Below, in pieces: positions 4,177-38,330 of a stretch of 64,000 nt of DNA. The notes below the pieces were generated by a model. It ran no database searches and was not told the DNA's origin. It saw nothing but the letters and a program-made list of their open reading frames with translations. A program made the position numbers and the translations under genes. The DNA is from Candidatus Geohabitans tengchongensis (GTDB taxonomy: Bacteria > Sysuimicrobiota > Sysuimicrobiia > Sysuimicrobiales > Humicultoraceae), in contig JAVKIH010000001.1 in assembly GCA_031459625.1 (NCBI GenBank), forward strand, positions 117,187 through 181,186, in the 5' to 3' direction. How positions within the stretch are numbered: position 1 is the first letter of the stretch; each line of letters begins with the position of its first letter.

Positions 4177-6363
4177 ATGAGCCTGCGCCGACGGATCATG
4201 GTGCTGGCGGCCATCGGGATGGTGGCCGCCACTGCGCCGTTGGGGCTCATGGGCGTCGGGATGCTCCGTGCCGCCACCGAGCGCGTCCTGGCCGAACGGC
4301 TCGCCCTGACGCGGGTGACGGCGGAGCACCTCGACGGGCGGCTGAGCCGGAGCCGGGACCACCTGGTGGTCCTGGCGCGCCTGGTGGCGGCCGCGCGGGC
4401 GCGCGGCCGTCTCGGGGAGATGCGCCCCGTCCTCGCGGCCATCACCCTCGAGTCCACAGTGTTCACTGGCGGAGTCCTCCTGACGGACGCCGCGGGTGAG
4501 CTGGTCTTCCAGGAACCCGGCACCGACGCTCTGGCGTTGTCCCGTCAGGACCTGCGCCCGGTGATCCACCAGACCCTGAGCACGGGGCGACCGGCCGTCA
4601 GCACGCTGCTCCGCACGGCCGGCAGCCTCCCCGTCGTCGTCATGACGGTGCCGGTTCCCGGTCCGGGACCCCGGCCGGCGGGAGTGCTGGCCGGAGTGAT
4701 CAACCTGGCGGACCCTGCCCTGCAGACGTTCGTGGAGGGCATGGCCGTCGGCACCACGGGGCACGCCGTCGTCGTGGATGCGGACGGCGTCGTCCTGATG
4801 AGCACCGACCGCAGGGAACTCTTCACGCGGGGCGAGCACCCGGAGTTCTTCATCCGGCACATGCGGGCACGGAAGGCCGCCGTGGGGCCGACGGAGGACC
4901 GCGAGGGGCACGCCATGGCCTTCGTGCCCCTGACGACGGTGCCCTGGGGCGTCGCGGCCGGCCAGGACGAAGAGGAGACCTTCGGCCCGATCCGGCGGCT
5001 GCGCGACCGCATCGTGCTCTTCGGGCTGGCGGTGCTGGCCGCCGCCCTCCTCTTCGCGTGGGTGGACACCGGGGCGGTCGCCGCCCCGCTGCGGTTGCTG
5101 CAGGAGAACGCCGAGCGCATTGCCCGCGGCGACCTGGGGCGTCCCGTGGACGTGCAGCGGGGCGACGAGATCGGCGCGCTGGCGCGGAGCTTCGAGACGA
5201 TGCGGGTCAGGCTCCTGGCCTCTCTGGAAGAGATCCAGCGCCGGGCCGTCGCCTCCCAGGCCCTCTACGAGGTGGGCACCGAGGTGTTGAGTCTGCGGGA
5301 CCGGGATGCGGTGCTGCGTTCTGTCGCCGCCCGTGCCGCCTCGCTCCTCCGGGCCGACGTCGCCGTCGTGTGCCTGTTCGCCGGGCGGGGCGACCGGGCC
5401 GTCGTGCGCGCGGCGTCCGGCCCGGCGGCCGGCGCCGTCGCCCGGGGGAGCACCTTCCCGGTGCCGGCCGGTGATCTCCAGCAGGGCTGCGTGACCTGTG
5501 CCAACATCGACGCGGCGCTCCGCTCGTCGCACCTGGCGGTGCCGCTCACCGTCGGTCGCCGCACGGTGGGTGCGCTCTGTGTCGCCTCCTCCACTCCACG
5601 GACCTTCTCCCCGGAGGACCGCGAGATCCTCAACGGCCTGGCCAACCTGGCCGCTATCGCCGTGGAGAATGCACGGCTGCAGGGGCAGGTGCGGTCACTG
5701 GCGGTCGCTGAGGAGCGCGAGCGCATCGCGCGGGAACTCCACGACAGTGTTGGCCAGGTGTTGGGCTACGTCAACACCAAGGTCCAGGCAGTGAAGCTCC
5801 TGCTGGAGGCCGGGAAACTGCCGGAGGCCCTGGCACAGCTGGGGCAGCTGGAGGACGCGGCGCGCACGAGCTACGCTGACCTGCGGGAGGCCATCCTGGG
5901 GCTGCGCACCGAGATCTCGCCCCACTGCCGGCTGGTGGACGCCTTGCGGGAGTATGTCAGCCGTTTCAGTGAGCTGAGCGGTGTGGAGACCCGGTTGCTC
6001 GTCGAGGGCGATCCTGCCGCATACCTCGTGGACCCGCCCGTCGAGCTCCACCTGATCCGCATCGTCCAGGAAGCGCTGGCCAACGTCCGCAAGCACGCGC
6101 GGGCCCGGCGCGCCTGGGTCTGGTTGGTGGAGCGGGGAGGGACCCTGATGGTGTCCGTCAGCGACGACGGCGTGGGGTTCGACCCGGCCCGCGTCGGCGG
6201 GGGGCTGTGGCCGCGGTTCGGCTTGCAGACCATGCGCGAGCGGGCGGAAGCCATCGGCGGTTCGTTCGCGGTTCGCCGCCGCGACGGCGGGGGTACGGTG
6301 GTGAGCGTCTCCCTGCCCGTGCATCGCGGGGGACCTGTGGATGCGCGTGCTGCTGGTGGATGA
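4177..6363 (+). CDS. sensor histidine kinase (TM - extracytoplasmic domain - TM - HAMP - GAF - HisKA_3 - HATPase)
   Basis: 728 aa. Two hydrophobic segments flank a ~250-aa domain. The H-box 'ERERIARELHDSVGQVL' is typical of NarX/DegS-type HisKA_3. The C-terminus is ATPase-like. Confidence 0.85.
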   Translation: MSLRRRIMVLAAIGMVAATAPLGLMGVGMLRAATERVLAERLALTRVTAEHLDGRLSRSRDHLVVLARLVAAARARGRLGEMRPVLAAITLESTVFTGGVLLTDAAGELVFQEPGTDALALSRQDLRPVIHQTLSTGRPAVSTLLRTAGSLPVVVMTVPVPGPGPRPAGVLAGVINLADPALQTFVEGMAVGTTGHAVVVDADGVVLMSTDRRELFTRGEHPEFFIRHMRARKAAVGPTEDREGHAMAFVPLTTVPWGVAAGQDEEETFGPIRRLRDRIVLFGLAVLAAALLFAWVDTGAVAAPLRLLQENAERIARGDLGRPVDVQRGDEIGALARSFETMRVRLLASLEEIQRRAVASQALYEVGTEVLSLRDRDAVLRSVAARAASLLRADVAVVCLFAGRGDRAVVRAASGPAAGAVARGSTFPVPAGDLQQGCVTCANIDAALRSSHLAVPLTVGRRTVGALCVASSTPRTFSPEDREILNGLANLAAIAVENARLQGQVRSLAVAEERERIARELHDSVGQVLGYVNTKVQAVKLLLEAGKLPEALAQLGQLEDAARTSYADLREAILGLRTEISPHCRLVDALREYVSRFSELSGVETRLLVEGDPAAYLVDPPVELHLIRIVQEALANVRKHARARRAWVWLVERGGTLMVSVSDDGVGFDPARVGGGLWPRFGLQTMRERAEAIGGSFAVRRRDGGGTVVSVSLPVHRGGPVDARAAGG

Positions 6364-7009
6364 CCATCCCCTCTTCCGCGACGGCCTCCGAAGCCTGCTC
6401 CAGGCCCGGGGCGTTCAGGTCGTCGGCGAAGCCAGCGACGGGCAGGAAGCGCTCGAGCGCGCCTGGCAGCTTCGGCCCGACGTGGTCCTGATGGACATCA
6501 CCATGCCCCGGATGGATGGCCTGGAGGCCACGCGGCTCATCAAAGCCCGGATGCCCGACGTCAAAGTCGTCATCCTGACCGTCTCTGACGAGGACCGGAT
6601 GCTCTTCGAGGCGATCAAGAGCGGGGCGCAGGGCTACCTGCTCAAGAACCTGCGGGCTGACGAGTTCTTCGACCTGCTGAGTGGGATCGAGCGAGGCGAG
6701 GCTCCCATCACCCGCCGCCTGGCCAGCCGCATCCTGGAGGAGTTCGCCCGGGAACCCGGCGGCCCGAGCCGACCCGGGACGCACGACGCGCTCACCGAAC
6801 GGGAGCGCGACGTGCTCCGCTGCGTCAGCCAGGGCGCTTCCAACCGCGAGATCGCCGTCATGCTTCGCATCTCGGAGAACACGGTCAAATACCACATGAG
6901 GAACATCCTGGAAAAGCTGCACCTGCGGAACCGCGCCGAAGTGGTGGCCTACGCGGCCCGGCGGGGATGGCTCCCGCCGGAGCGGCCCCCGGACTCCGAC
7001 CCGCCCTAA
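6341..7009 (+). CDS. response regulator, NarL/LuxR family
   Basis: Receiver domain (MRVLLVDDHPLFRDGL…DVVLMDITMP) plus a LuxR-type HTH (ERERDVLRCVSQGASNREIAVMLRISENTVKYHMRNILEKL). It overlaps the kinase gene by 23 nt. Confidence 0.9.
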   Translation: MRVLLVDDHPLFRDGLRSLLQARGVQVVGEASDGQEALERAWQLRPDVVLMDITMPRMDGLEATRLIKARMPDVKVVILTVSDEDRMLFEAIKSGAQGYLLKNLRADEFFDLLSGIERGEAPITRRLASRILEEFAREPGGPSRPGTHDALTERERDVLRCVSQGASNREIAVMLRISENTVKYHMRNILEKLHLRNRAEVVAYAARRGWLPPERPPDSDPP

Positions 7010-7045
7010 CCCCGGCGCGGGAGGGCCCCGCCGGGTCCGGCCCCG

Positions 7046-7065
7046 CCCTACCCGAACGGGTAGGG
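7046..7065. promoter_or_regulatory. perfect 9-2-9 inverted repeat CCCTACCCG-AA-CGGGTAGGG, candidate binding site for the adjacent NarL-type regulator
   Basis: Palindrome read directly from the sequence. It lies ~37 nt after the regulator stop and ~140 nt before the cupredoxin operon. The TACCC half-sites resemble NarL heptamers (TACYYMT). Confidence 0.4.
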
Positions 7066-7205
7066 AGCTTGCCCACCTGCCTGGAGGGTCTGCACCACCC
7101 GTCCCCCTGCCCACTGGTGCGTTGTGGGCGGCGACGCGACCGCCTACCGTCGAAGCGGGCCGGCGCAGGAGCGCCGTCCACGTACCTCAGCGGAGGTGAG
7201 CAACG

Positions 7206-7688
7206 ATGGGGCGTGCAGTGGGGCTCGCCACCATGGTGCTCGTCCTGGCTCTCCTCGTGGGTGCTGCCACCGCGGGCGGCGGGCGGCAGGTGACCGTCAC
7301 CATGGGCGAAGACGGCCCGCGCATGTTCTTCCGCCCGGCTCGGATCGTGCTGGCGTCGGGCGTCGAGACGGAGCTCGTCCTGGTGAACCGCGGCAGGCTG
7401 AAGCACGAGTTCATGGTGTACGCGCCGCCGAAGCCCGGCATGTCGCGGGACGCCCTGCACGAGTGGGCCGAGGACAACAACTACTTCAAGGGCCTTGAGG
7501 TCACCGTGGAGGGTAGCGGGCTGGAAGTGGAGACCAGGGAGCTGATCGAGATCGAAGTCGCCGCGGGGAAATCCGCGGAAGTGAAGTTCACGCCGAAGAA
7601 GACCGGAACGTTTGAGATGGCCTGCCTGATCAAGGATCCGGTGGACCACTACCAGGCGGGGATGCGAGGCACGCTCGTGGTGAAGTAG
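7206..7688 (+). CDS. type-1 (blue) copper protein, plastocyanin/auracyanin-like, secreted
   Basis: N-terminal signal peptide. Candidate Cu ligands are His (LKHEF) … Cys-x7-His-x4-Met (FEMACLIKDPVDHYQAGMRGTLVVK), with the characteristic C-terminal GxLVV. GGAGG RBS. Confidence 0.7.
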   Translation: MGRAVGLATMVLVLALLVGAATAGGGRQVTVTMGEDGPRMFFRPARIVLASGVETELVLVNRGRLKHEFMVYAPPKPGMSRDALHEWAEDNNYFKGLEVTVEGSGLEVETRELIEIEVAAGKSAEVKFTPKKTGTFEMACLIKDPVDHYQAGMRGTLVVK

Positions 7689-7703
7689 TGGAGGTGCGGC
7701 GCC

Positions 7704-8153
7704 ATGGGGCAGAGAGCGGTCACCGCCAGCGCGGTCTTCGTGGCGGTCCTGGCGACGGCGGCGGCCATCTATCTGGTGGATCAAGGGTACCGCCCGCCCA
7801 TCTCGGCCGCGCCGCCGGTGACGCCGGAAATCCGCCGGTTCGACCTCTACCTGCACGCCTTCGAGGTGGGGGACCGCCCCGTCTATCACTGGATGCCGCC
7901 GACGCTGGTCGTCAATGCTGGCGACCCGGTGATGCTGCGGGTGATCAACGCCGACCCTGACAGTGCCCACGGGTTCGCCCTGGGCGCCTTCAACCTCGCG
8001 GTCCCCAGCATCCCGCCCGGGCAGGCCACCACCCTCCGCTTCCGGGCCACGCGGCCCGGTGTGTACCACTTCGGCTGCGCCCTCACCGGCTGCGCTGCGG
8101 ATCACGCCAGCCAGGTGGGCCAGCTCGTCGTCCTGGGCGACACGCCGCCGTGA
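7704..8153 (+). CDS. membrane-anchored cupredoxin-domain protein with a CuA-like Cys-x4-Cys-x3-His-x2-Gln motif
   Basis: N-terminal TM anchor (AVFVAVLATAAAIYLV). Sequence runs HGFAL … YHFGCALTGCAADHASQVGQLVV. RBS GGAGGTG. The stop overlaps the next gene's start. Confidence 0.65.
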   Translation: MGQRAVTASAVFVAVLATAAAIYLVDQGYRPPISAAPPVTPEIRRFDLYLHAFEVGDRPVYHWMPPTLVVNAGDPVMLRVINADPDSAHGFALGAFNLAVPSIPPGQATTLRFRATRPGVYHFGCALTGCAADHASQVGQLVVLGDTPP

Positions 8154-9052
8154 GGGTCTCGCGACGGTCCTTCCTCAAGCTTGCCGCCGCCGCCGGGATG
8201 GTCGCGGCATGGGCGGTGGGCGAGCCGGCGGCTCCGGTGCGCCGCCCGTGGGTGGGGGCGGGCCGCGGCGTGCCGGCCCTCGCCCGCAGCACGGGCCAGG
8301 CCGGTCGGCCACGTCGCTGGGTCATGGTGGTGGACCTGGCCAAGTGTGACGGCTGCCAGGAGTGCACCCGGGCGTGCACCGCCATGCACCGCGTCCCGCC
8401 AGGACAGGAGTGGATTCGGGTCTACGAGATGCGGGACGAGGCCACCGGCCTGGCCTACTGGCTGCCGCGTCCCTGCATGCAGTGCGACAACCCGCCGTGC
8501 GTGAAGGTCTGCCCGGTCAGCGCCACGTGGAAGCGCGACGACGGCATCGTCATGCAGGACACCAGCCGGTGCATCGGCTGTCGGTACTGCATCGCCGCGT
8601 GTCCCTACCAGGCCCGGGCCTTCAACTGGCTCGAGCCGGCCGCCACCCCCGAGCGGACCGGGGAGGCGTACGACCCCGAGTGGAACCGCGTGCATTTCAA
8701 GGGCACCACGGAGAAGTGCATCTTCTGCCCCGCCCTGATCAAGGAGGGGAAGCTTCCCGCCTGCGTGGCAGCCTGTCCCATGGGTGCCATCTATTTCGGC
8801 GACCGTGAGGAAGACGCCGTGACCAACTCCCAGGGCGAGACGGTCCGCTTCTCGGCGCTGGTGACCGAGCAGGCCGGCTACCGCCTGTTGGAGGAGCTGG
8901 GCACCGAGCCGCGCGTCTACTACCTGCCGCCGCGCCAGCGCCTCTACCCCGCGCCGCCGGCGGAGCCGGCGGCGGCACCTGTGCCGGCGGCGGCGCCGCG
9001 ACGGACCGTTCCGCCGGACCGGCCTGGCGCCGTCGGAGGTGCGGTGCCATGA
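8150..9052 (+). CDS. Tat-exported 4Fe-4S ferredoxin-type subunit, NrfC/PsrB/ActB2-like
   Basis: Twin-arginine motif RRSFLKLAAAAG. Multiple Cys clusters (CDGCQECTRAC…CMQCDNPPCVKVCP…CIGCRYCIAACP…CIFCP…CVAACP). GTG start overlaps the upstream stop. Confidence 0.85.
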   Translation: MRVSRRSFLKLAAAAGMVAAWAVGEPAAPVRRPWVGAGRGVPALARSTGQAGRPRRWVMVVDLAKCDGCQECTRACTAMHRVPPGQEWIRVYEMRDEATGLAYWLPRPCMQCDNPPCVKVCPVSATWKRDDGIVMQDTSRCIGCRYCIAACPYQARAFNWLEPAATPERTGEAYDPEWNRVHFKGTTEKCIFCPALIKEGKLPACVAACPMGAIYFGDREEDAVTNSQGETVRFSALVTEQAGYRLLEELGTEPRVYYLPPRQRLYPAPPAEPAAAPVPAAAPRRTVPPDRPGAVGGAVP

Positions 9053-10617
9053 GCAGGCCGCCTCACCACGGGTTCTCGGACCGCGAGGAGCGCCTGCTCG
9101 CCTCGCTGTCGGCGGGCGGAACGGGCTTCTCCGCCTTGATCGGGGGGCTGCTGGCGGTGGTCGTCTGGGGCCTGGTGGCGTATGCCACGCAGCTGCGCCA
9201 CGGCCTGGGCGTCACCGGTCTGCGCGACCACGTCCTGTGGGGCGTCTACATCGCCAACTTCGTCTTCTTCATCGGCGTCAGCCACGTGGGCGCCCTGATG
9301 TCGGCCATCCTGCGTCTGACGGGCGCCGAGTGGCGGCGCCCCATCACCCGCATGGCGGAGGCCATCACCTTTGCCTCCCTCCTGATGGGAGCCCTGATGC
9401 CGGTGGTGGACATGGGGCGACCAGACCGGTTGCTGACCCTCATCGGGCATGGCCGACTGCAGTCCCCGATCCTGTGGGACATCCTGTCCATCACGACCTA
9501 CCTGACCGGCAGTACGCTCTTCCTCTACGTGCCCATGATCCCCGACCTCGCCCTCCTGCGCCACCGCTACGCCGGGGGCCCCGCCTGGCGCCGGCGGCTG
9601 TACACCCTCCTGAGCCTCGGGTGGCAGGACACCCCCGCCCAGCGCCACGCCCTGGAGACCATCATGCGGGTGCTGGCGGTGATGATCATCCCGATCGCCG
9701 TCTCCGTGCACACCGTCGTCTCCTGGATCTTCGGCATGACGCTGCGCGCAGGCTGGAACAGCACCATCTTCGGTCCCTACTTCGTCTCGGGGGCCCTGTT
9801 CAGCGGGGCCGCGGCGGTCGTGACAGCCATGGCGACGTTTCGGTGGGCCTACCACCTGGAGGACTACATCACCGAGGCGCACTTCCGGCGCATGGGCTAC
9901 TTGCTCATCGCGCTGGGGCTGGCGTACGGCTACTTCACGTTCGCGGAGTACCTGACGCCCGCCTACAAGATGGCGACCGCCGAGCGGGGGTACCTCACGG
10001 CCGTCTTCAGCGGTCCCTTGGCGCGGCTGTTCTGGTTCACGCAGCTGACTGGCATCTTGCTCCCGGTGCTCCTCCTCACCCTGCCGCGGATCGCCTGGGT
10101 GCCTCGGCTGCACAGGGTACCGCTGTTGCGACCGCGGCCGGCGCTGGCGGCAGCCGTCACGTACGCCGTCGCCACCGTGGTCCTGTCCGCCGCCGGCCCG
10201 CGCATGACGATGGCCCGCGTGAACCTGACCGCGCTGATCCCACCGTGGGCGCTGCCGGCGCTGGTCCTCTGGCTCTTCCTGGCCTGGCTCCCCGTCTTCC
10301 ACGTCCGGCCCATCGCGGCCGCCGTGGTCGCTTCGCTGCTGGTGAACGTCGGCGCATGGCTCAAGCGCTACCTCATCATCGTCCCGACGCTGCTCAACCC
10401 CTTCCTGCCCATCCAGCGTGCACCGACTGGGTGGGCCGCCTACCAGCCCACCTGGGTGGAGTGGTCGATCACGGCCGGCGCGCTGGCGGGTTTCGCGCTC
10501 ATCTACATCGGGTTCAGCAAGGTGTTCCCCATCATCCCCATCTGGGAGACGCGCCAGGAGCCCGCGCCGCTCCGCCCGGCCGGCCAGGAGGGGGTCCCCG
10601 GTGTCCCGGCGCTTTAG
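9049..10617 (+). CDS. NrfD/PsrC-family polytopic membrane quinol-interacting subunit
   Basis: 522-aa highly hydrophobic protein with ~10 predicted TM segments. NrfD-like N-terminal region (GLRDHVLWGVYIANFVFFIGVSHVGALMSAILRLTGAEWRRPITRMAEA). ATGA overlap with the upstream gene. Confidence 0.85.
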   Translation: MSRPPHHGFSDREERLLASLSAGGTGFSALIGGLLAVVVWGLVAYATQLRHGLGVTGLRDHVLWGVYIANFVFFIGVSHVGALMSAILRLTGAEWRRPITRMAEAITFASLLMGALMPVVDMGRPDRLLTLIGHGRLQSPILWDILSITTYLTGSTLFLYVPMIPDLALLRHRYAGGPAWRRRLYTLLSLGWQDTPAQRHALETIMRVLAVMIIPIAVSVHTVVSWIFGMTLRAGWNSTIFGPYFVSGALFSGAAAVVTAMATFRWAYHLEDYITEAHFRRMGYLLIALGLAYGYFTFAEYLTPAYKMATAERGYLTAVFSGPLARLFWFTQLTGILLPVLLLTLPRIAWVPRLHRVPLLRPRPALAAAVTYAVATVVLSAAGPRMTMARVNLTALIPPWALPALVLWLFLAWLPVFHVRPIAAAVVASLLVNVGAWLKRYLIIVPTLLNPFLPIQRAPTGWAAYQPTWVEWSITAGALAGFALIYIGFSKVFPIIPIWETRQEPAPLRPAGQEGVPGVPAL

Positions 10618-11254
10618 CGCTAGCGCGCTGATCGCCGGCCCGGGGGGGGTCTGGCTGGGCCTGGCGGTGGCGGCGCTGTTCGCCTGCCCGGCGTGGGCCG
10701 CCGAGCCGGCCCGCATCACCCTGGAGGTGGCGGGCCTCGAGGACGCGCGGTGGATCATGGCCGTGGTCACCGACGCGACAGGCGCGCCGGTGCCCGAGGC
10801 GCTCATCGTGTTCAAGGCCCGCACGACCTTCGGCTGGCTCCTCCTGGAGGAGCGATCGACGGACGCCGCCGGCCGGGCGCGGATGGGCCTTCCCGCCGGC
10901 GTGCGGGCGACGGCGATCCGAGCGGAGAGCGCGGACATCGGGCAGGTGCACGCGACCGTGCGCGTGGGTGGACCGTCCCCGGCCACTCCGCGGGTGCGAC
11001 CGGACCGCGACGTGCTCAGGGCCCTGAGCCCGCAGCCGGGCGTGATCAGTCCCTATCCCGTGCCGGCGCAGGTGGCGCTGCTCGCGGCGGTCCTGGGCGG
11101 GATCTGGGCGACGTATGGGTATGTGGCCTGGCTCCTGTGGCGCATCCGCACGTCCGGTCGGTCGCAGGGCGTGAGGGCGCCGGCGTCCCCGGAGCGGGAA
11201 CCGCTCACTGCTCGGCTTGGGTGGCCTCCAGGAAGGCGTGCAGGGCTGTCGTGA
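10601..11254 (+). CDS. hypothetical secreted/membrane-anchored beta-sandwich (carboxypeptidase-regulatory-like) protein
   Basis: GTG start overlaps the NrfD-like stop. N-terminal signal peptide. The pattern 'ITLEVAGLEDARWIMAVVTDATGAPVPEALIVF…TDAAGRARMGLPAGV' resembles CarboxypepD_reg/prealbumin-like folds. C-terminal TM helix. Confidence 0.5.
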   Translation: MSRRFSASALIAGPGGVWLGLAVAALFACPAWAAEPARITLEVAGLEDARWIMAVVTDATGAPVPEALIVFKARTTFGWLLLEERSTDAAGRARMGLPAGVRATAIRAESADIGQVHATVRVGGPSPATPRVRPDRDVLRALSPQPGVISPYPVPAQVALLAAVLGGIWATYGYVAWLLWRIRTSGRSQGVRAPASPEREPLTARLGWPPGRRAGLS

Positions 11255-11999
11255 ACGCTTCCGGCGTCTCCAGGTTGCTCAGGTGGCCCGCCTCCGGCAG
11301 CACGATCAGCCGGCTGTTCGGGATGGCTGCGGCCATGGCCCGCGCGACCTCCGGCGGGGTGACCGAGTCCTCCTCCCCGACGAGGACCAGGGTGGGCACG
11401 GTGATCTGGGACAGGAGGGGACGGCTGTCGGGACGGGCCGCCAGCGCCCGCAGGGTGGCCGCCAGCGCCCGCGGATCCGCCGTCGCCGCCAGTGCCTCCA
11501 CGGTGGCGACGACGTGAGGACGGCGGGCGCGGGTCGTAGGACCCACCAGCCCGCCGACGAAGTCGCGCAGGGCCTCGCACCCCTCCTGCGCGACGCGCGC
11601 GGCCAGCGCCAGGCGGCGCGCCCGGCCCTCCTCCGTGTCCGGCTCGGCTCGCGTGTCGGCAAGGACGAGCCGGGTGGCGAAGGTCGGCGCCTGCTCCAGC
11701 AGCCGGAAGGCCACGTAGCCGCCCATGGAGAGACCGATCACGGTGGCCCGGGCGATGCCCAGTGACGCTGCCAGCGCCCTCACGTCGGCGGCGAGCTGCG
11801 CCAGCGTCACCTGGTCGCTGACGGAGGACTCCCCGAAGCCGCGCAAGTCCACGGTGAGCACCTGAAACCGGTCGCGCAGTCCGGCGACCTGGGGCCGCCA
11901 CATGCCCCGGTGGAGGGGGAAGCCGTGCAGGAAAAGGAGGGGCTCGCCGCTCCCCTCCAGGTCGTAGCCCAGCGTCACCCCGTCCACGGTGCGTCGCAT
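11205..11999 (-). CDS. alpha/beta hydrolase fold protein
   Basis: 264 aa. HGFPLHRGMW and the nucleophile elbow GLSMGG are present, with a catalytic His near the C-terminus. Confidence 0.85.
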   Translation of the reverse strand: MRRTVDGVTLGYDLEGSGEPLLFLHGFPLHRGMWRPQVAGLRDRFQVLTVDLRGFGESSVSDQVTLAQLAADVRALAASLGIARATVIGLSMGGYVAFRLLEQAPTFATRLVLADTRAEPDTEEGRARRLALAARVAQEGCEALRDFVGGLVGPTTRARRPHVVATVEALAATADPRALAATLRALAARPDSRPLLSQITVPTLVLVGEEDSVTPPEVARAMAAAIPNSRLIVLPEAGHLSNLETPEAFTTALHAFLEATQAEQ

Positions 12000-21741: not shown

Positions 21742-23166
21742 TCACTCGTACAGGAGGTAGCGGCTCCGCAGCGCCTCGAACCGGCGCAGCGCCGGTTGCC
21801 AGCGCGCCACGATGGCCTCCGCGGGCAGCCCGCGCGTGAGGTCCACCCGCACCTGCTTGGTCCCCCAGACCACGTCGAAGAGGGCCCGGCCGCGGCGGGG
21901 CAGCCGGAAGCGCAGCTGCCCCGGGTGGAGGTCGCGGATCTCCGCCAGCACGTAGACGGTCGTGGTGGCCGGGCGGAAGGCGGCGCGGTCCGTCACGTGC
22001 AGCCGCACTCCGCGCCACACCCGTCCCGTGCGCGGGTGGGGGACGGCAGAGGGGGAGAAGCGCACCCCCGGCAGCCCGCGGCGGTTGAGGCGGGCGGCCA
22101 GGCGCTCGCCGTCCATCCAGGGCGCCAGCACCACCTGGAAGCGCGAGGTGGTGGCCACCCCGTTCCACAGGTTCGTCCCGTCGAGCGGGCCGGTGGCGGC
22201 GTAGTAGAAGGGGGCGTCGGCGTGGGTGAGGCCCGGGGAGGGGTTCACCCAGGGCAGCCCCGTCTCGGTCCAGGGCATGCTCCGGCTCCACCCCTGCATG
22301 GGCACGACGGTGAGCTGGGCGCCGATGCCGAAGGCGTCGTTGTACAGGCGGGCGAGTTCCCCGAGCGTCATCCCGTGCACCAGCGGGATCGGGTAGAGCC
22401 CGATGAAGGAGCGGAAGGCGGGCTCGAGCACCGGGCCGTCGACGACGGTGCCGCCGAGCGGGTTGGGCCGGTCGAGGACGACGACGGGCTTGCCGGCCTC
22501 GCGGGCGGCCGCCATCACCAGCGCCATCGTGGAGGCGTAGGTGTACGGGCGCGTACCGGCGTCCTGCAGGTCGACCACGAGGACGTCCACGCGCGCCAGC
22601 ATCTGCCGCGTCGGCCGGAAGGCGCCGCCGTAGAGGCTGTACACCGGCGTCCGCGAGGGGAGGATCGCCCCCGGTGCGCCGCCGATGTGGGTGCTGGCCA
22701 CGGGGACGCCCGCGCCCGCACTGCCGTCGAACCCGTGCTCGGGGGCGAAGAGCGCGGTGAGGCGCACCCCGGGCGTGCGGGCCAGCGCCGCCGCGGTGAG
22801 GTCGCCCGCGGCGGTCGTGCCGGCCAGGTGGGTGACCAGGCCGACGCGCTTGCCAGCGAGCGGTGCCGGGTCGGTGAGCAGGGTGTCGGCCCCGAGACGG
22901 ACCTCGGGGCGGAGGTCCGACCCGCCGGCCCACAGCGCCGGGCCCCACGACCAGAGGACCAGGAGGACGACGACCGCGACGAGACGCAAGACGCGAGGGC
23001 TCCGAGACCGGTCACGCGCCGGACCGTGGACCGGTGGCGCGTTGGTCGGTAAGATTCGGTTGATCGCTGACGGGTTCCTGCCCAGGCCCGCCGCCGCGTA
23101 GACGTCTCGTGCAGCCCTGAGGAGGTCTCCTGTGGTGACGCTCCCTCCCGAGGCCTTCGAGGCCAA
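21742..23166 (-). CDS. namZ: DUF1343 protein, exo-beta-N-acetylmuramidase NamZ-like
   Basis: Conserved DUF1343 blocks (VGLVTHLAGT…DVLVVDLQDAGTRPYTYASTMALVMAAA…VLDRPNPLGG). N-terminal TM/signal. True start uncertain (ATG 23166 or TTG ~22989). Confidence 0.75.
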   Translation of the reverse strand: MASKASGGSVTTGDLLRAARDVYAAAGLGRNPSAINRILPTNAPPVHGPARDRSRSPRVLRLVAVVVLLVLWSWGPALWAGGSDLRPEVRLGADTLLTDPAPLAGKRVGLVTHLAGTTAAGDLTAAALARTPGVRLTALFAPEHGFDGSAGAGVPVASTHIGGAPGAILPSRTPVYSLYGGAFRPTRQMLARVDVLVVDLQDAGTRPYTYASTMALVMAAAREAGKPVVVLDRPNPLGGTVVDGPVLEPAFRSFIGLYPIPLVHGMTLGELARLYNDAFGIGAQLTVVPMQGWSRSMPWTETGLPWVNPSPGLTHADAPFYYAATGPLDGTNLWNGVATTSRFQVVLAPWMDGERLAARLNRRGLPGVRFSPSAVPHPRTGRVWRGVRLHVTDRAAFRPATTTVYVLAEIRDLHPGQLRFRLPRRGRALFDVVWGTKQVRVDLTRGLPAEAIVARWQPALRRFEALRSRYLLYE

Positions 23167-32665: not shown

Positions 32666-33547
32666 ATGACCGCCCGCCCGGCCCTCGCCGCCCGGACCCG
32701 CGCCGCCATCTTGGGCGCGGCGCGGCGGCTCTTCGCGCGCCGGGGCTTCGCCGGCACGGCCGTCCGGGAGATCGCCGTGGCGGCGGGCGTCTCGAAGGCG
32801 CTCATCTACCACCACTTCCGCGACAAGGACCGCCTCTTCTCCCTGCTACTGGCGCAGGCGGCGGGGCTGGTGCGCCGGGAAGTCGTGGCGCTCCCGCCGG
32901 AGGAGCCGCCGGTGCGGCAGATGGCCCGGCTGATCCTCCAGTACCTGCGCTTCGCGGAATCCCACCCGGACCTGCTGCGCCTCCTGCTGCGGGAGGAGGC
33001 GCACGGCGAGGCCGGGCGGGCTCCAGCCCTGCTGGCGCGGCTGCGCCGGGAGGAGCAGGCGGCGTTCGAGGCGGTGATCCGGCGCGGCGTCGCCGCGGGG
33101 GCCTTCAAGGAGGTCGACCCCGCCGTCTCTGCCTCGGCGGTGGCGAGCGCCGTCCGGCTGCTGGCGGCGGCGTTCGCCGGGGCGCCGCACCTCACGGCGG
33201 ACGGCCGGCGTCCCCCCGCCGTGGAGGTGGCGGCCAATGCGCTCGACATCCTCCTCAACGGCCTGGCCCGCCGGCCGCACCCGCGGCGCGAGGTCGAGAC
33301 CCTGCTGACCGGTATGGCGGGCCCCGCCCATACCCCGCCGCGGACCTCGCGCCCGAGCGGCGCTCGCGAGGCGAGCAGCGCAGCCACGGCGCGGGCAGCA
33401 CGGGGGCGCGGGAGCGGGAGGCCGCGGCGGGGGGGGCGCAGGATCGGTGGGACCGGCGGAACAGGAAGCGGGCACGGTGAACGGGCGTTCACCTCACTTG
33501 AACGTCTGAGGGGTCGGGCGCACCGCCCGCGGGAGGCATCGGCGTGA
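32666..33547 (+). CDS. TetR/AcrR-family transcriptional regulator
   Basis: N-terminal HTH (ILGAARRLFARRGFAGTAVREIAVAAGVSKALIYHHFRDK). The C-terminal ~80 aa is low-complexity run-on before the first stop. Confidence 0.8.
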   Translation: MTARPALAARTRAAILGAARRLFARRGFAGTAVREIAVAAGVSKALIYHHFRDKDRLFSLLLAQAAGLVRREVVALPPEEPPVRQMARLILQYLRFAESHPDLLRLLLREEAHGEAGRAPALLARLRREEQAAFEAVIRRGVAAGAFKEVDPAVSASAVASAVRLLAAAFAGAPHLTADGRRPPAVEVAANALDILLNGLARRPHPRREVETLLTGMAGPAHTPPRTSRPSGAREASSAATARAARGRGSGRPRRGGRRIGGTGGTGSGHGERAFTSLERLRGRAHRPREASA

Positions 33548-35136
33548 GGGCTCGGGTCTGGTGGATCGTCGTGGTCATCGTCCTGGCGGCAGGGGGAGCG
33601 CTGCTGGTCGGACGGGTGCGGCCCCGCACCGGCGCGCAGGTGGCTGCGCCGGCACCGGGCGCGACGGCGTCCGGGCCGGGGCCGCAGGCGGCATCTCCGG
33701 CGGCGCTGCCCGTGGAGGCGGTGCGGGTACAGCAGGGGACCATCGAACGGCGCGTGGCCGTGAGCGGCAGCGTCACCTCGGTGCAGCTGGTCCGCCTCTT
33801 CGCCAAGCGCTCGGGCCAGGTGGTCGCCGTCCTCGTCCGGGAGGGTGACCGCGTCGCAGCTGGGCAGGCGCTCGTGCAGCTCGACACGACCGACGCCGCC
33901 ATTCGCGTCCGGCAGGCCGAGGCCGCCGCGCGCGTCGCCGAGGCCCAGTACGCCCTGGTGGCCCAGGGAACCCGGCCGGAGCAGGTGGCCCAGGCCGAAG
34001 AAGCGGTGCGGCAGGCGCGCGCGCAGGTGCGCGCGGCCGAAGCCCGTCTGGCGCTCCTGCGTGCCGGCGCCCGGCCGCAGGAACGGGAGCAGGCGCGCCA
34101 GGCCGTCCGCCAGGCGGAGAGCGCCCTGGCCACGGCCGAAGCCCAGCGGCGCGCCGCGCTCAGCGCCGCCGAGACGGCGGAGGCCCACCTGCAGCGCATG
34201 GAGACGTTGCTGCGCGAAGGGGCGGTGGCCCAGGTGCAGGTGGACCAGGCGCGGCTGGAGGCCGAGCGGGCCCGCGCCCAGGTCCGCACGGCCGAAGCCC
34301 AGGTGGCTGCGGCCCGCGCGCAGCTGGAGAGCGCGCGCCAGCAGGCCAGCCTGGTTGAGAGCGGTCCCCGCGCGGAGGAGGTCCAGGCGGCCGATGCGCA
34401 GGTGGCGCAGGCGCGCGCCGCGCTGCGGCAGGCGGAGCAGGCGCTGCTGCTGGCGCGGCGGGGGGCGCGGGCGCCGGAGGTGGCTGCCGCCGCGGCCCAG
34501 CGCGACCAGGCGCGGGCTGTGCTGGCCGAGGCCCGGCAGGCCCTGGCCGACCTCACCCTGCGCGCGCCGTTCGCGGGCCGGGTGGCGCAGGTCCGCGTGG
34601 CGCGGGGGGACCTGGTGACCGCAGGGGAGTTCGGCCAGCCGGTGGTCGTCGTCTACGACGACCGCGCCCTCGAGGCCGAGGTGACGGTCGGCGAGCGCGA
34701 GGCGCCGCTGGTGCGCCCGGGACAGCCGGCCGTGCTGCGGGCCGAGTCGGCGGGCGGGGCGGCGGTGTCCGCGGTGGTGCGCACCGTGGCCTTGCTGGCC
34801 CAGCCCGGCAGCCGCACCGTCAGCGTCCGGCTGCGGCTGGCCGCGCCGCCCCCGGGCGTGCTGCCCGGGACCTTCGTCCGCGGGGCCATCGCGGTGGAGC
34901 GTCGCCGCGGCGTCCTCACCGTGCCCCGGGCCGCCGTCCGCCGGGTCGACGGCCGGGACGTCGTCTGGCTCGTCGAGGGGGGCGTGGTGCGGGTCCGTCC
35001 CGTGGCGGTGGGCCTGATCCAGGACGCCCGGGTGGAGGTGCGGCGCGGCGTGCGGGCGGGCGACCTGGTGGTCACGCTCGGTCCCGAGGCGGTGACGGAG
35101 GGCACACGGGTCACCGTGGTGCGGGAGGTGCGCTGA
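33544..35136 (+). CDS. efflux RND periplasmic adaptor (membrane fusion protein, HlyD family) with an extended coiled coil
   Basis: N-terminal TM anchor. Long Ala/Gln/Arg-rich helical hairpin region. C-terminal beta-barrel block (…LTLRAPFAGRVAQVRVARGDLV…). GTGA overlap with tetR. Confidence 0.8.
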   Translation: MRARVWWIVVVIVLAAGGALLVGRVRPRTGAQVAAPAPGATASGPGPQAASPAALPVEAVRVQQGTIERRVAVSGSVTSVQLVRLFAKRSGQVVAVLVREGDRVAAGQALVQLDTTDAAIRVRQAEAAARVAEAQYALVAQGTRPEQVAQAEEAVRQARAQVRAAEARLALLRAGARPQEREQARQAVRQAESALATAEAQRRAALSAAETAEAHLQRMETLLREGAVAQVQVDQARLEAERARAQVRTAEAQVAAARAQLESARQQASLVESGPRAEEVQAADAQVAQARAALRQAEQALLLARRGARAPEVAAAAAQRDQARAVLAEARQALADLTLRAPFAGRVAQVRVARGDLVTAGEFGQPVVVVYDDRALEAEVTVGEREAPLVRPGQPAVLRAESAGGAAVSAVVRTVALLAQPGSRTVSVRLRLAAPPPGVLPGTFVRGAIAVERRRGVLTVPRAAVRRVDGRDVVWLVEGGVVRVRPVAVGLIQDARVEVRRGVRAGDLVVTLGPEAVTEGTRVTVVREVR

Positions 35137-38100: not shown

Positions 38101-38330
38101 TGGCCGTGCTGGGCGGCATGTTCACCTCCACCGCCCTCACCCTGGTGGTGATCCCGACGGTCTACACGCTGCTGGACGACCTGCTGGCACGGGCGCGTGA
38201 GGTGCGCCTGCGGGGAGTCCGCGTGCGCCAGCCGCTCCCGGTCACCGGCGGGGCGGGGGCCGCAGGCGAGGCCCGTGGCCGCCAGGCAGACCACCCCGGC
38301 GGCCCCACCCCCCCGGGCGCGCACGCCTGA
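35136..38330 (+). CDS. RND efflux transporter permease (AcrB/HAE1-like)
   Basis: 1064 aa with 12 TM segments and two large periplasmic loops. N-terminus MSLAALAVRRQVLVLMVIAGLLVLGLIAYGRLPVELFPNVQFPFVSV. ATGA overlap with the adaptor gene. Confidence 0.9.
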   Translation: MSLAALAVRRQVLVLMVIAGLLVLGLIAYGRLPVELFPNVQFPFVSVVTAYPGAGPEEVERLITRPLEEQLSSLTNVRTIRSISAEGASTVGIEFALGTDIDAAAADVRQRVDLVKAGFPRDAQDPIVQKFDFSALPVVLLGVSGPSGLGLRELAEEVIKPRLERVPGVAAVTVSGGREREIEVAVAQDRLRAEGFTIDQVEEALRLANLNIPAGRLRAGDEEFLVRVVGQFGRVEAIGDLVLQRGDGYTIPLRAVAEVRETFREPDQFTRLNGRDSVGLSVQKQAGANTVEVAEGVRRVVRDLRGILPPGTAIAVARDDSLFIRDAIADVQGNLLLGAALATLVVLLFLHDLRSTVIIALALPAAIVATYIPMFFFGFSLNTLSLLALAIAIGLMVDNAIVVNENISRHLALEPTPALAAERGAREVELAVWASNLANVAVFIPIAFTRGLVGQFFRQFGLTVVFANLFSILIGFTLTPMLSARWLRPRRPEDRPGRFATWWDRGFGRLQDRYAGLLRWALGRRWTVVGGAALLFAASLALVASPLIGKEFFPTGDYGQFQVSVTMPPGTALRQTDRAVRAVEAVLRDLPEVEAVFALVGGAEDPFLGTTSGSQRGQIFVNLVPRERRTRSVDEVMAEVRARTRRIAGAEVHVAAQGGAGPGTAPVQVELSGPDVAVLQRLAAQVERIVARTPGTTNVDTNLDAGTSEVQVRLDQARLAELGLTTARVGTAVRQALAGVAASRYRGVGQEVDIVVRAGAADRAAVERLADLHVATVGGRPVRLGDVATLEVRRGPAVIERKDRQRLAVVSASLLGRPLSAVVNDIQRALPAVALPPGYTVRFGGEAEFQRETFGDMLFALGLGSLLVYMTMAAQFESLVQPFVIMFSLPLASIGTFLLLLLTRTTVSLISLLGIVMLAGIVVNNAILLVEFITQRRREGAPRQEAILAAARTRLRPILMTALVSIMGGLPVALGLGASGAEWRRPLGVAVLGGMFTSTALTLVVIPTVYTLLDDLLARAREVRLRGVRVRQPLPVTGGAGAAGEARGRQADHPGGPTPPGAHA

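Follow-up and report, generated by a model that had tools for sequence, protein, structure and literature searches.

A membrane-tethered cupredoxin with a CuA-like C-x4-C loop, candidate electron-exit subunit of a heme-free NrfCD-type module in Candidatus Geohabitans tengchongensis

The stretch of Candidatus Geohabitans tengchongensis DNA analysed here (64,000 nucleotides, hereafter the window) encodes a membrane-tethered cupredoxin, CupA, whose ligand loop resembles that of CuA centres with one more residue between its two cysteines, a variant that is rare and strictly conserved. We propose, with a probability that we put at roughly 0.55, that CupA is the copper subunit by which electrons leave a four-gene membrane module composed of CupA, an NrfC-like Fe-S protein, an NrfD-family protein and an Ig-like protein (ORF5), which would act as a heme-free quinol:cupredoxin oxidoreductase. 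The features discussed below are located in Table 1.

Table 1. Features of the cupA region, in positions of the window.
Feature	Position	Strand	Basis
Sensor histidine kinase (dCache_1-HAMP-GAF-HisKA_3-HATPase), conserved upstream regulator	4177..6363	+	Pfam
NarL/GerE-type response regulator	6341..7009	+	Pfam Response_reg and GerE
Cup1, exported single-Cys type 1 cupredoxin, proposed soluble acceptor	7206..7688	+	translation, Pfam
Shine-Dalgarno sequence GGAGGTG, 7 nt 5' of the CupA ATG	7690..7696	+	read from sequence
CupA, 149-aa membrane-tethered cupredoxin with two-Cys loop of putative CuA derivation	7704..8153	+	translation, Pfam, AF2, alignments
CupA N-terminal hydrophobic helix, probable signal anchor (residues 4-28), followed by Pro/Ala-rich linker (about 30-42)	7713..7787	+	hydropathy, AF2
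CupA His89 (HGF), counterpart of the N-terminal His ligand in CuA and type 1 sites	7968..7970	+	invariant, 27 loci
CupA ligand loop C125-ALTG-C130-AA-D133-H134-AS-Q137	8076..8114	+	C, C, D and H invariant; 137 Q/M
CupA Cys125 codon	8076-8078	+	
CupA Cys130 codon	8091-8093	+	
CupA His134 codon	8103-8105	+	
CupA Gln137 codon	8112-8114	+	
NrfC/DsrO-like periplasmic Fe-S subunit, Tat-exported	8150..9052	+	Pfam Fer4_11, NCBIfam, PDB
NrfD-family predicted quinol-interacting membrane subunit, closest to ActC	9049..10617	+	Pfam NrfD, PDB ActC 2e-55
ORF5, exported Ig-like (Big_1-type) protein with C-terminal TM helix	10601..11254	+	gene call on identical contigs

CupA is a real gene, as shown by the composition of its codon positions (GC3 0.91 versus GC2 0.52), by the Shine-Dalgarno sequence that precedes it, by the overlap of its stop codon with the GTG start of the NrfC-like gene, by a match to Pfam Cupredoxin_1 above the gathering threshold (PF13473; 29.8 bits against 27, E 6.6e-7) and by the presence of an identical protein on 15 public contigs. 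Its translation is exactly the protein quoted in the first-pass annotation, a reading made from the letters alone. Promoters and terminators were sought over positions 6900-11600 and none was found, the 74% GC content making such a scan uninformative.

From its N-terminus, the protein consists of one helix, a linker rich in Pro and Ala, and a cupredoxin domain. A hydropathy scan finds a single hydrophobic segment, and the AlphaFold2 (AF2) model places a helix at residues 2-29, with pLDDT below 50 at residues 33-35; as the homologues are devoid of an AXA cleavage motif, this N-terminus is more likely a signal anchor than a cleaved signal peptide. The first-pass annotation had set such a single TM anchor against the two of COX II; the single anchor stands, but the contrast does not hold as a general rule, since ba3-type subunit II also has one TM helix (PMC3475470), as does CupA. 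The structure prediction that the same annotation had proposed gives a cupredoxin sandwich of nine strands (pLDDT 82), in which the ligand loop, at pLDDT 64-73, is the least confident part.

The putative ligands lie in the pattern H89-G-F ... Y-H122-F-G-C125-A-L-T-G-C130-A-A-D133-H134-A-S-Q137; translation thus confirms the Cys-x4-Cys-x3-His-x2-Gln loop as first read, and Cys125 and Cys130 are the only cysteines of the protein. On sequence grounds the motif is not due to chance, because the six-frame translation of the window contains the pattern a single time, and yet it is present in every homologue locus: H ... C-x4-C-x2-D-H-x2-(Q/M) is encoded in 27 loci out of 27, with 20 distinct loop sequences, and H89, C125, C130, D133 and H134 stay unchanged in homologues as distant as 25% identity (alignments A1 and A2). 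The first-pass annotation had singled out the loss of one cysteine among homologues as telling against its reading; no CupA homologue lacks either, and their spacing is C-x4-C in all 27 loci, versus C-x3-C in CuA. Position 137 is Gln in the window and in all CSP1-3 and Caldinitratiruptor copies, and Met in a Symbiobacteriaceae metagenome-assembled genome (MAG) and in the archaeal-type homologues. Q/M interchange at one position is a classic copper axial-ligand signature, and this residue, switching as it does across lineages, behaves like an axial ligand.

The likeness to CuA that had first been suggested is borne out by several comparisons. Among curated families (NCBIfam), the best match is Sec-type clade II NosZ CuA (5.7e-12), followed by Tat NosZ, NirK and CoxB, with scores below the respective thresholds (44.7 bits against 625 for NosZ, which is a whole-enzyme model; 28.3 bits, 1.2e-6, against 147.7 for CoxB); Pfam COX2 (PF00116) is likewise below threshold, at 17.1 bits against 22. 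One clade II NosZ CuA domain is 43% identical to CupA and has the string HGFALGAFN in common with it; in the domain alignment, H89, C125, C130, H134 and Q137 occupy the H/C/C/H/M columns, so that Gln indeed stands where NosZ has its axial Met, and the one extra residue of CupA is placed between the two cysteines. His89 aligns with the NosZ CuA His and also with His95 of NirK. CupA and the CuA domains of NosZ and COX II are all of the cupredoxin fold, and Foldseek matches the CupA model to N2OR CuA domains (4e-8), NirK and nitrosocyanin, all at about 1e-8, with nitrosocyanin on top. The second half of the CuA loop, C-x3-H-x2-X followed by G-x-L-V-V, is common to both: C130-AAD-H134 has the CuA-like C-x3-H spacing, and the second Cys, the His and D133 are invariant in the CupA homologues. 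Two cysteines and C-x3-H-x2-(M/Q) are kept in 130 of the best 150 representatives, 87 of which have the canonical C-x3-C-x3-H-x2-M loop as the first-pass annotation had given it; the NosZ of locus L019 has this loop too. A profile search gave 2,864 hits in all. The closest neighbours outside the CupA family are canonical two-Cys proteins, and in the related classes, C-x3-C cupredoxins and long-loop C-x10-C cupredoxins, both cysteines are invariant.

CupA nevertheless departs from CuA in its x4 rather than x3 Cys spacing, in the Gln that replaces the axial Met in the window's copy, in an Asp rather than Gly before the loop His, and in being a stand-alone protein of 149 aa, encoded with NrfC and NrfD and having neither a CuZ propeller fusion nor a COX1 partner. 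One has to bear in mind that CuA takes its backbone-carbonyl ligand from the stretch between the cysteines, precisely the part that is altered in CupA, and we know of no characterised CuA precedent for an i,i+5 Cys spacing. PmoD, a membrane-anchored cupredoxin, reportedly has an atypical natural CuA-like site, thiolate-bridged and dicopper, with non-canonical ligand spacing and outside COX II and NosZ, and this site is said to span a homodimer, with one Cys per monomer; the likeness to CupA would end there, the motif of PmoD being different and its genomic partners being pmo/amo operons. The alignments point to a copper site descended from CuA. It would comprise His89, Cys125, Cys130, His134 and, in the axial Met position, Gln137, and would probably be binuclear, with two coppers bridged by both thiolates; the extra inter-Cys residue and the invariant Asp133 would remodel its weak axial side.

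The same complex could instead house a mononuclear site, which we consider rather unlikely: either a NirK/stellacyanin-like type 1 copper held by His89, Cys125, His134 and Gln137, in which Cys130 would be a fifth ligand or lie in the second sphere, or a bis-thiolate “red/green” copper resembling the mononuclear intermediates of CuA assembly. Indeed, the type 1 domains of NirK are the best PDB sequence matches of CupA (2e-8), and the loops align without a gap, C-x8-H in both, with C125 on Cys136 and H134 on His145; C130 then falls on a non-ligand Met of NirK. H89, C125 or C130, H134 and Q137 could form a type 1 set, an axial Gln occurring in the type 1 copper of stellacyanin; the top Foldseek match, nitrosocyanin, is mononuclear; and the extra inter-Cys residue, like the long loops of the C-x10-C paralogues, could be incompatible with a Cu2S2 diamond. 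A type 1 site, however, does not need two cysteines that are invariant in all homologues as well as in the C-x3-C and C-x10-C classes; its single-Cys loop is found in Cup1 and not in CupA, which Pfam Copper-bind does not match. The constant unit C-x3-H-x2-(M/Q) is that of CuA, the axial residue being at His+3 and not at His+5 as in NirK and stellacyanin; the nearest curated families and sequence neighbours are CuA-type; and the type 2 copper His residues of NirK are absent from CupA, in which the His100 region is deleted and Gly, not His, precedes the Cys.

Several narrower assignments were rejected. A main reading of CupA as a NirK fragment or relative was set aside, the curated model giving 28.8 bits where 296 are required and the type 2 His residues being missing, so that the type 1-like alignment bears on the metal site only; so was a nitrosocyanin-like red copper site (NCBIfam, 21.5 bits against 142.85; His/Cys/Cys/His is unlike the nitrosocyanin ligands). 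The annotation as cytochrome oxidase subunit II carried in bacterium HR32 does not suit a protein coupled to NrfC, with a sub-threshold COX2 match and no COX1 gene nearby in the window, and a role as electron-entry domain for a CuA-less N2O reductase was set aside for the window, which has no NosZ-like gene. As for NosGH/NapGH, the analogy is functional only, NapH and NosH not being known to belong to the NrfD family.

The genes around CupA are those on which the proposed module is built. The NrfC-like protein (300 aa) carries the Tat motif SRRSFLK, and its 16 Cys make up four 4-Cys motifs (4 x [4Fe-4S]); it matches DsrO (3e-55; 187 bits, just under the cutoff of 200), PsrB (3e-32) and the C-terminal part of ActB (1e-26). 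The NrfD protein has no Cys and no cofactor motif, and aligns with the ActC structures 6btm_C (2e-55) and 6f0k_C (1.4e-53); with the ActC quinol-site positions taken from PMC8076601, Ser164 and Asp169 are kept, His139 is replaced by Asp and Asp253 by Ile, three positions out of four being conserved or compatible. The two proteins thus have the make-up of NrfCD/PsrBC/DsrOP, a Tat-exported four-cluster subunit with a cofactor-less membrane subunit. In ORF5, the hydropathy scan finds hydrophobic segments at residues 8-34 and 158-176, and the TM motif is W-A-T-Y-G-Y-V; Pfam gives no match for the window's own copy, and homologues carry Big_1. Upstream, Cup1 has an N-terminal hydrophobic signal, a single Cys and the ligand pattern H67 ... 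C140-x7-H148-x4-M153, and both Pfam Cupredoxin_1 and Copper-bind score above cutoff. Start and stop codons overlap at the CupA/NrfC, NrfC/NrfD (ATGA) and NrfD/ORF5 junctions, and the signals for topology are on the P side, with the Tat motif of NrfC and N-terminal hydrophobic segments in Cup1, CupA and ORF5. No CxxCH heme-c motif is present in the five operon proteins of the window, and no Sco or PCuAC assembly gene or terminal reductase was found within the window.

This arrangement is conserved. The order CupA-NrfC-NrfD-ORF5 is found in every CSP1-3/Sysuimicrobiota locus whose sequence extends far enough, the degenerate L011 excepted, as well as in the cultured Caldinitratiruptor microaerophilus and in the Symbiobacteriaceae MAG; in the CSP1-3 loci, Cup1 is kept directly upstream of CupA and ORF5 after NrfD. 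A kinase of the same domain architecture as the window's lies upstream of the module in the CSP1-3 loci and in Caldinitratiruptor, and the response regulator is 69-86% identical across the CSP1-3 loci. On archaeal-looking contigs, NrfC and NrfD (the latter 60% identical to the window's) are followed by a single gene whose product joins an ORF5-like part and a C-x4-C cupredoxin, ORF5 being homologous to the middle part of this fusion protein. Overlapping codons, conserved adjacency and gene fusion together uphold the partnership with the NrfC-like subunit that had been supposed at first reading. COX2 and COX1 lie inside the CupA locus in L014, and L001/L002 have COX2 upstream. Upstream in L031, and in no other locus, is a 475-aa His-rich YVTN beta-propeller lipoprotein, with a weak lactonase-like match (0.016) and a surface-layer-protein match, a tentative candidate for the CuA-less N2O reductase considered above; the term “lactonase-type” N2O reductase was not found in the searchable literature.

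In the mechanism that we propose, menaquinol would be oxidised at a P-side site of the NrfD subunit and the electrons would pass via the four NrfC clusters to CupA, whose cupredoxin domain one helix and a flexible linker would keep near the membrane; CupA would in turn reduce Cup1, which may deliver electrons to a terminal reductase, for example a heme-copper oxidase, NirK or NosZ. This would make the module a heme-free functional analogue of complex III and of alternative complex III (ACIII). In stellacyanin and in Met-to-Gln mutants of CuA, a Gln axial ligand lowers the redox potential; a lower potential is thus expected from Gln137, which would suit a carrier placed between the Fe-S clusters and a type 1 copper with a Met ligand. 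The direction of flow, from quinol to copper, is argued from thermodynamic reasoning only, and the oxidase genes in or near some loci (L014, L001/L002) fit a quinol-to-oxidase route.

Known systems offer parallels. ActC of ACIII is the protein most similar to the window's NrfD, with the quinol-site Ser and Asp kept, and ActB resembles the window's NrfC in its C-terminal Fe-S part only; periplasmic electron output is a feature of ACIII and is proposed for the CupA module, and ACIII uses the blue copper protein auracyanin as periplasmic acceptor (PMC10873879). Unlike ACIII, the CupA module has no pentaheme ActA, no monoheme ActE nor any CxxCH, lacks the molybdopterin-like ActB1 domain and, with its one NrfD gene, a second NrfD-like subunit (ActF), and it includes a two-Cys cupredoxin and an Ig-like TM protein. 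At archaeal complex III loci, as described for Ca. Angelarchaeales and Nitrososphaerales, cytochrome c gives way to blue copper proteins (PMC9038741); the nearest relative of CupA outside its family (P0022), a multi-domain protein with canonical two-Cys loops, is encoded on an archaeal contig directly upstream of Rieske and cytochrome b genes. The archaeal Rieske/cytochrome b complexes follow the same logic, a quinol-oxidising module encoded with a membrane-bound cupredoxin exit; the CupA module differs from them in being NrfCD-type and Fe-S only, with neither heme b nor Rieske cluster and so no Q-cycle, and in the expanded C-x4-C loop of CupA.

Electrons may also be imagined to run the other way, the cupredoxins taking them from the periplasm or the extracellular medium and passing them through CupA and NrfC to the quinone pool; the complex would then be a cupredoxin:quinone reductase for lithotrophy, whose NrfD subunit would spend proton-motive force on the uphill step. 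We judge this improbable, even if an axial Gln, by lowering the potential, would ease uphill transfer, and if the CupA-type loci, with up to four cupredoxins each, suggest an electron-collecting chain. The hosts are hot-spring chemolithoautotroph candidates (PMC11604079), and NrfD-family modules operate both ways, QrcCD reducing menaquinone (PMC8076601); the bidirectionality and the proposal that NrfD-like subunits are ion-translocating modules are found in PMC8076601 and PMC13059093. However, no donor-oxidising enzyme is conserved near CupA in the loci examined, and heme-copper oxidase genes lie in or beside some of them. Copper-protein potentials are also far above that of menaquinone.

A function in copper homeostasis or detoxification seems very improbable to us; binding or oxidation of periplasmic Cu(I) would fall to the cupredoxins, NrfCD would serve as electron sink and the two-component system would respond to copper. 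Cup1 does match the C-terminal part of the copper-resistance protein CopI (1e-12), but this partial match is limited to the type 1 loop region, with 48 bits against 280; a ZIP transporter gene lies inside the L001/L002 locus and another adjoins a related cupredoxin-Rieske locus (L028), and a CopD-like gene adjoins paralogues in L009, but neither an efflux ATPase nor a multicopper oxidase is conserved near the loci examined. With its Cache and GAF sensors, the regulator belongs to the NarL/HisKA_3 type and not to the OmpR type of CopRS and CusRS, and no metal-resistance system is known to us that uses an ActC-like quinol module with four Fe-S clusters. Least credible of all is a metal-free domain, its Cys pair forming a redox-active or structural disulfide on a degenerate scaffold like that of quinol-oxidase subunit II: at a distance of five residues, cysteines exposed to the oxidising side of the membrane can pair, as they do in apo-CuA, and copper-less cupredoxin domains such as CyoA are known, but a scaffold needs neither the two His nor the axial Gln/Met position, which are conserved with the cysteines down to 25% identity, and the interchange at the latter is the mark of a copper ligand.

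Coming back to the heme-free quinol:cupredoxin oxidoreductase, a search of the available literature for NrfC/NrfD with cupredoxin or CuA-like sites, including the two CSP1-3 papers, returned nothing relevant, and a respiratory complex of this type is probably undescribed. More tentatively, the complex III analogue may be shared by bacteria and the archaeal-looking contigs, and its electron-exit centre may represent a new natural class of purple dicopper sites that would include the long-loop C-x10-C cupredoxins of ammonia-oxidising archaea; the traits of this class would be cysteines spaced further apart, an Asp adjoining the loop His and a Gln or Met as axial ligand. To our knowledge, nearly all natural CuA has the loop found in oxidases and N2O reductase, C-x3-C-x3-H-x2-M, and studies of this loop and of the axial ligand have until now relied chiefly on protein engineering. 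The natural series described here, with x3, x4 or x10 between the cysteines, Met or Gln as axial residue and Gly or Asp before the loop His, could reveal what loop length and the weak ligands contribute to the tuning of a dicopper centre, or of one converted to mononuclear.

An ActC-like NrfD encoded with a four-cluster NrfC and CupA, and with no heme genes, points to a new link between the quinol pool and copper carriers, which would join bc1/b6f, ACIII and the archaeal cupredoxin-bc complexes. The orthologous operon of Caldinitratiruptor microaerophilus, a cultured and fully sequenced thermophile whose CupA is WP_264841793.1, makes the proposal directly testable; the module could explain how some members of CSP1-3/Sysuimicrobiota, a widespread phylum, supply their oxidases or denitrification enzymes.

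CupA, the protein under study, is encoded by a real gene, as indicated by its codon positions (GC3 0.91 vs GC2 0.52), a GGAGGTG ribosome-binding site 7 nt before the ATG, a stop codon overlapping the GTG start of NrfC, a Pfam Cupredoxin_1 score above gathering (29.8 vs 27 bits), and an identical protein on 15 public contigs, some of them from NCBI assemblies that list it as [quoted passage not shown]. Its translation contains H89-G-F ... C125-A-L-T-G-C130-A-A-D133-H134-A-S-Q137, the Cys-x4-Cys-x3-His-x2-Gln pattern quoted in the first-pass annotation, with the numbering corrected here; C125 and C130 are its sole cysteines, and a six-frame translation of the window shows the motif a single time. 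A hydropathy scan finds a single hydrophobic segment (residues 4-28), and in the AlphaFold2 model (mean pLDDT 82) a helix (2-29) is joined by a disordered Pro/Ala linker to a sandwich of nine strands; nowhere in this domain is confidence lower than in the ligand loop (pLDDT 64-73).

Coordinates of the CupA operon and of related genes at homologue-bearing loci (each locus with its own numbering)
Feature	Contig	Position	Strand	Description
HK	window	4177-6363	+	Cache-HAMP-GAF-HisKA_3 kinase
RR	window	6341-7009	+	NarL-type regulator
Cup1	window	7206-7688	+	exported single-Cys type 1 cupredoxin
CupA	window	7704-8153	+	protein under study, 149 aa
NrfC	window	8150-9052	+	iron-sulfur subunit
NrfD	window	9049-10617	+	membrane quinol subunit
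ORF5	window	10601-11254	+	Ig-like single-TM protein
Fusion gene	L025	8001-9440		archaeal-type fusion protein
Fusion gene	L026	8001-9335		archaeal-type fusion protein
Second NrfC-NrfD pair	L010	10182-12504
Second NrfC-NrfD pair	L013	1-2284
Second NrfC-NrfD pair	L017	13557-15711
CupA paralogues	L001	6110-7042
CupA paralogues	L003	8517-9472
CupA paralogues	L010	5235-6163
CupA paralogues	L012	8471-9417
CupA paralogues	L009	14932-15904
CupA paralogues	L016	471-1350

Database labels are either unspecific or mistaken (“cupredoxin domain-containing protein”, “Cytochrome c oxidase subunit 2”, “EfeO-type cupredoxin-like”). A PDB sequence search puts NirK type 1 domains at the top (2e-8), followed by Thermus ba3 CuA domains (~1e-6) and N2O reductase (1e-5); among the curated NCBIfam models, the best match is to the CuA domain at the C-terminus of Sec-dependent (clade II) NosZ (5.7e-12), with Tat NosZ, NirK, and CoxB next in rank, every match lying far under the whole-protein cutoff, and Foldseek against the PDB is non-discriminating, with nitrosocyanin, N2OR CuA domains, and NirK all at ~1e-8. 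A search of species-representative genomes yielded a clade II NosZ with 43% identity to CupA residues 62-143 in its CuA domain; the two have HGFALGAFN in common, and that NosZ ends in the canonical CSEFCSALHLEM. In the domain alignment, H89, C125, C130, H134, and Q137 line up with the His, Cys, Cys, His, and Met ligands of NosZ CuA, the sole difference in loop length being one extra residue between the cysteines. We do not file CupA as a CuA protein, since it has neither the C-x3-C spacing nor the axial Met that define such proteins in sequence and falls under the Pfam COX2 threshold; judging by its sequence, it is a cupredoxin of the CuA lineage, that is, a CuA-derived variant.

In the close family (12 clusters among 5.8 billion proteins), H89, C125, C130, D133, H134, Q137, and Q140 are invariant and H122 varies. 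H89, C125, C130, D133, and H134 are still invariant in a divergent alignment at 25-46% identity, where position 137 is Gln (n = 12) or Met (n = 3), and H ... C-x4-C-x2-D-H-x2-[Q/M] is found in 27/27 homologue-encoding loci, with 20 distinct loop sequences. Homologues lacking one of the cysteines, which would have spoken against the first-pass annotation, were thus not encountered in these alignments and loci, so that this test does not refute it. A profile search of 1.84 billion representatives returned 2,864 relatives, and we classed the loops of the best 150 of them (P0013-P0162): 87 are canonical CuA (C-x3-C-x3-H-x2-M), 13 have CupA's own C-x4-C-x3-H-x2-Q, 3 have C-x4-C-x3-H-x2-M, 5 have C-x3-C-x3-H-x2-Q, 2 have C-x3-C-x3-H-x2 with another residue, 20 have C-x(9-18)-C-x3-H-x2-M or -Q, 11 have one Cys only, and 9 fit none of these patterns. 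Within the same 150, Asp precedes the loop His in 36/36 expanded-loop (x4 or x9-18) proteins and Gly does so in 83 loops of canonical C-x3-C spacing, a strict correlation between this Asp and expanded Cys spacing that the first-pass annotation does not mention. In Caldinitratiruptor-type members (P0021/P0202, P0026, P0029), a third Cys comes just ahead of the N-terminal His, within a short insertion (DVDCAKYPHGF).

Longer loops are found in the CupB and CupC paralogues, membrane-anchored cupredoxins with C-x10-C-x2-D-H-x2-M loops, e.g., CMLPYDPAKGNCTPDHENM. Many CSP1-3 loci carry two such extra genes, whose products are 27-40% identical to CupA; the window's genome copy has none. The expanded-loop class extends to ammonia-oxidising archaea, as seen from a 302-aa thaumarchaeal protein of a Nitrosopumilus sp. 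MAG (MDH5569308.1, L020 3152-4060) with a very Met-rich N-terminal region and a long two-Cys loop, CEVPYNPDKQWCDPDHAMM, and from its many relatives among the profile matches.

A binuclear, CuA-derived site is the reading we favour for CupA, with a probability of about 0.5-0.55: all CuA side-chain ligand positions are retained, both Cys are invariant over the x3, x4, and x10 spacing classes, C-x3-H-x2-[M/Q] is a constant unit, and both the families and the individual sequences closest to CupA are CuA-type. A mononuclear site seems rather improbable to us; it would fit the ungapped NirK alignment, in which C125 is the type 1 Cys, H134 the type 1 His, and C130 falls on a non-ligand Met, as well as the altered inter-Cys segment, which in CuA donates the carbonyl ligand, and the i,i+5 Cys spacing, of which we know no characterised CuA example. 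One may speculate that the invariant Asp133 compensates for the displaced carbonyl, or merely caps the longer loop.

The genes from CupA to ORF5 overlap at each junction, and no CxxCH (heme) motif is present in any of the five operon proteins. The Tat motif of NrfC (SRRSFLK) is perfect, and the 16 Cys of the protein form four 4-Cys motifs; with 187 bits it narrowly misses the DsrO cutoff of 200, and it has further matches to PsrB and to the Fe-S portion of ActB. NrfD is similar to ActC of alternative complex III (ACIII, ActABCDEF) at 2e-55; at the quinol-site positions listed in PMC8076601, it retains the equivalents of Ser164 and Asp169, Asp253 is replaced by Ile, and His139 by Asp, as in DsrP, QrcD, and PsrC. 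CSP1-3 NrfD proteins (522-524 aa) carry a ~65-residue insertion with extra hydrophobic segments (window 10111-10308, residues ~355-420); ActC lacks this insertion, as do the homologues (461-466 aa) of the Caldinitratiruptor, Symbiobacteriaceae, and archaeal types. The ORF5 N-terminus (window 10601-10700) begins with a twin-arginine-like VSRRFSAS and has L-F-A-C before an AWA site, so that ORF5 could be Tat-exported and/or lipid-modified. Elsewhere the 64-kb window is free of respiratory and copper genes and looks ordinary (32666-38330; 21742-23166 (-); 59520-60920 (-)), with a TetR - HlyD-type adaptor - AcrB-type RND efflux operon, NamZ and AnmK for cell-wall recycling, solute-binding proteins, adenine deaminase, and an HtrA-like protease.

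All sufficiently long loci of CSP1-3/Sysuimicrobiota MAGs share the gene order HK-RR-[0-2 paralogues]-Cup1-CupA-NrfC-NrfD-ORF5 except L011 (7134-9849, Ca. Fervidifonticultor secundus MAG), a degenerate-looking locus where the kinase matches as scattered fragments only and CupA is followed by a short ORF5 fragment alone, NrfC and NrfD being absent; gene decay or misassembly could account for it. The same four-gene core is found in the cultured thermophile Caldinitratiruptor microaerophilus (PMC9933637), alongside a kinase and a regulator of matching types (CupA orthologue WP_264841793.1, loop CSNKDCGKDHDRQ), and in a Symbiobacteriaceae MAG whose CupA has Met in the axial position. In the latter (L031 5345-7891), three lipoprotein genes precede the module, encoding a 475-aa His-rich YVTN beta-propeller (weak lactonase-like match), a monoheme cytochrome c, and a 200-aa cupredoxin; no link of these genes to N2O reductase was found. 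Two archaeal-looking contigs have NrfC-NrfD followed by a single ~480-aa fusion gene, whose product combines an N-terminal cupredoxin-like domain, an ORF5-homologous Ig-like domain with its TM helix, a second TM helix, and a C-x4-C-x3-H-x2-M cupredoxin. In pairwise BLAST against these contigs, the window's NrfD is 60% identical (1e-135), NrfC 52%, CupA 34% (1e-18), and ORF5 26% across a collinear stretch of 183 residues (1.5e-6). The case for joint action of CupA, ORF5, NrfC, and NrfD rests mainly on this fusion and on the invariant adjacency of their genes. The N-terminal domain of the fusion has a C-x3-C-A-G-M loop (FYCVVPCAGM) without the loop His. In a groundwater CSP1-3 MAG (L018 489-2689), a Cup1-like gene lies between NrfC and NrfD, not upstream of CupA, and three CSP1-3 loci carry a second, divergent NrfC-NrfD pair beside the module, 44% and 54% identical to the window's.

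Export or anchor signals on all three extramembrane components place the Fe-S chain and both copper domains on the P side. Menaquinol would be oxidised at the NrfD site, and electrons would cross the four NrfC clusters to CupA, which, tethered and mobile on its linker, would pass them to Cup1, itself handing them to a terminal reductase. We infer this direction together with a potential ladder in which Gln-ligated CupA lies lower than Met-ligated Cup1, as the general effects of axial ligands suggest. The first-pass observation on CupA is confirmed, and its interpretation is supported as far as sequence goes. The route has analogues: archaeal complex III loci in which blue copper proteins replace cytochrome c (PMC9038741), the blue copper protein auracyanin, the periplasmic acceptor of ACIII (PMC10873879), and P0022, the nearest non-family relative of CupA, which has canonical two-Cys loops and whose gene immediately precedes those for Rieske and cytochrome b on an archaeal contig. 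At L028 (566-3683), on a contig also bearing an eRF1 gene, the gene just upstream of Rieske/cytochrome b encodes a 427-aa protein that has two or more cupredoxin domains of the canonical two-Cys (CuA) type and looks like a stand-in for cytochrome c1.

An oxidase as electron acceptor in some hosts is hinted at by the canonical CuA COX2 and COX1 genes that, with one for an ArsR-type regulator, separate the cupredoxin genes from the response regulator in L014 (4314-7628; also L012) and by a COX2 gene upstream on the other strand in L001/L002 (426-1262 (-)). ZIP-family metal transporter genes occur inside the locus in L001/L002 (L001 5118-5867 (-)) and beside the cupredoxin-Rieske-cytochrome b locus (L028 4469-5230), and a CopD-like gene follows the paralogues in L009 (15922-16428); these are possible copper-supply genes.

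A full-text literature search for NrfC/NrfD with cupredoxin or blue copper returned nothing relevant, most subscription journals lying outside its reach and a prior description being possible; two CSP1-3 genome papers contained nothing relevant, and the search index lists no mention of “copper” for the NrfD-family review PMC8076601. Homology to ActC and in the Fe-S part links the module to ACIII, of which it has no heme subunit, no ActB1 domain, and no ActF. CupA looks like part of an undescribed heme-free quinol:cupredoxin oxidoreductase, which is testable since the module is present in a cultured organism.
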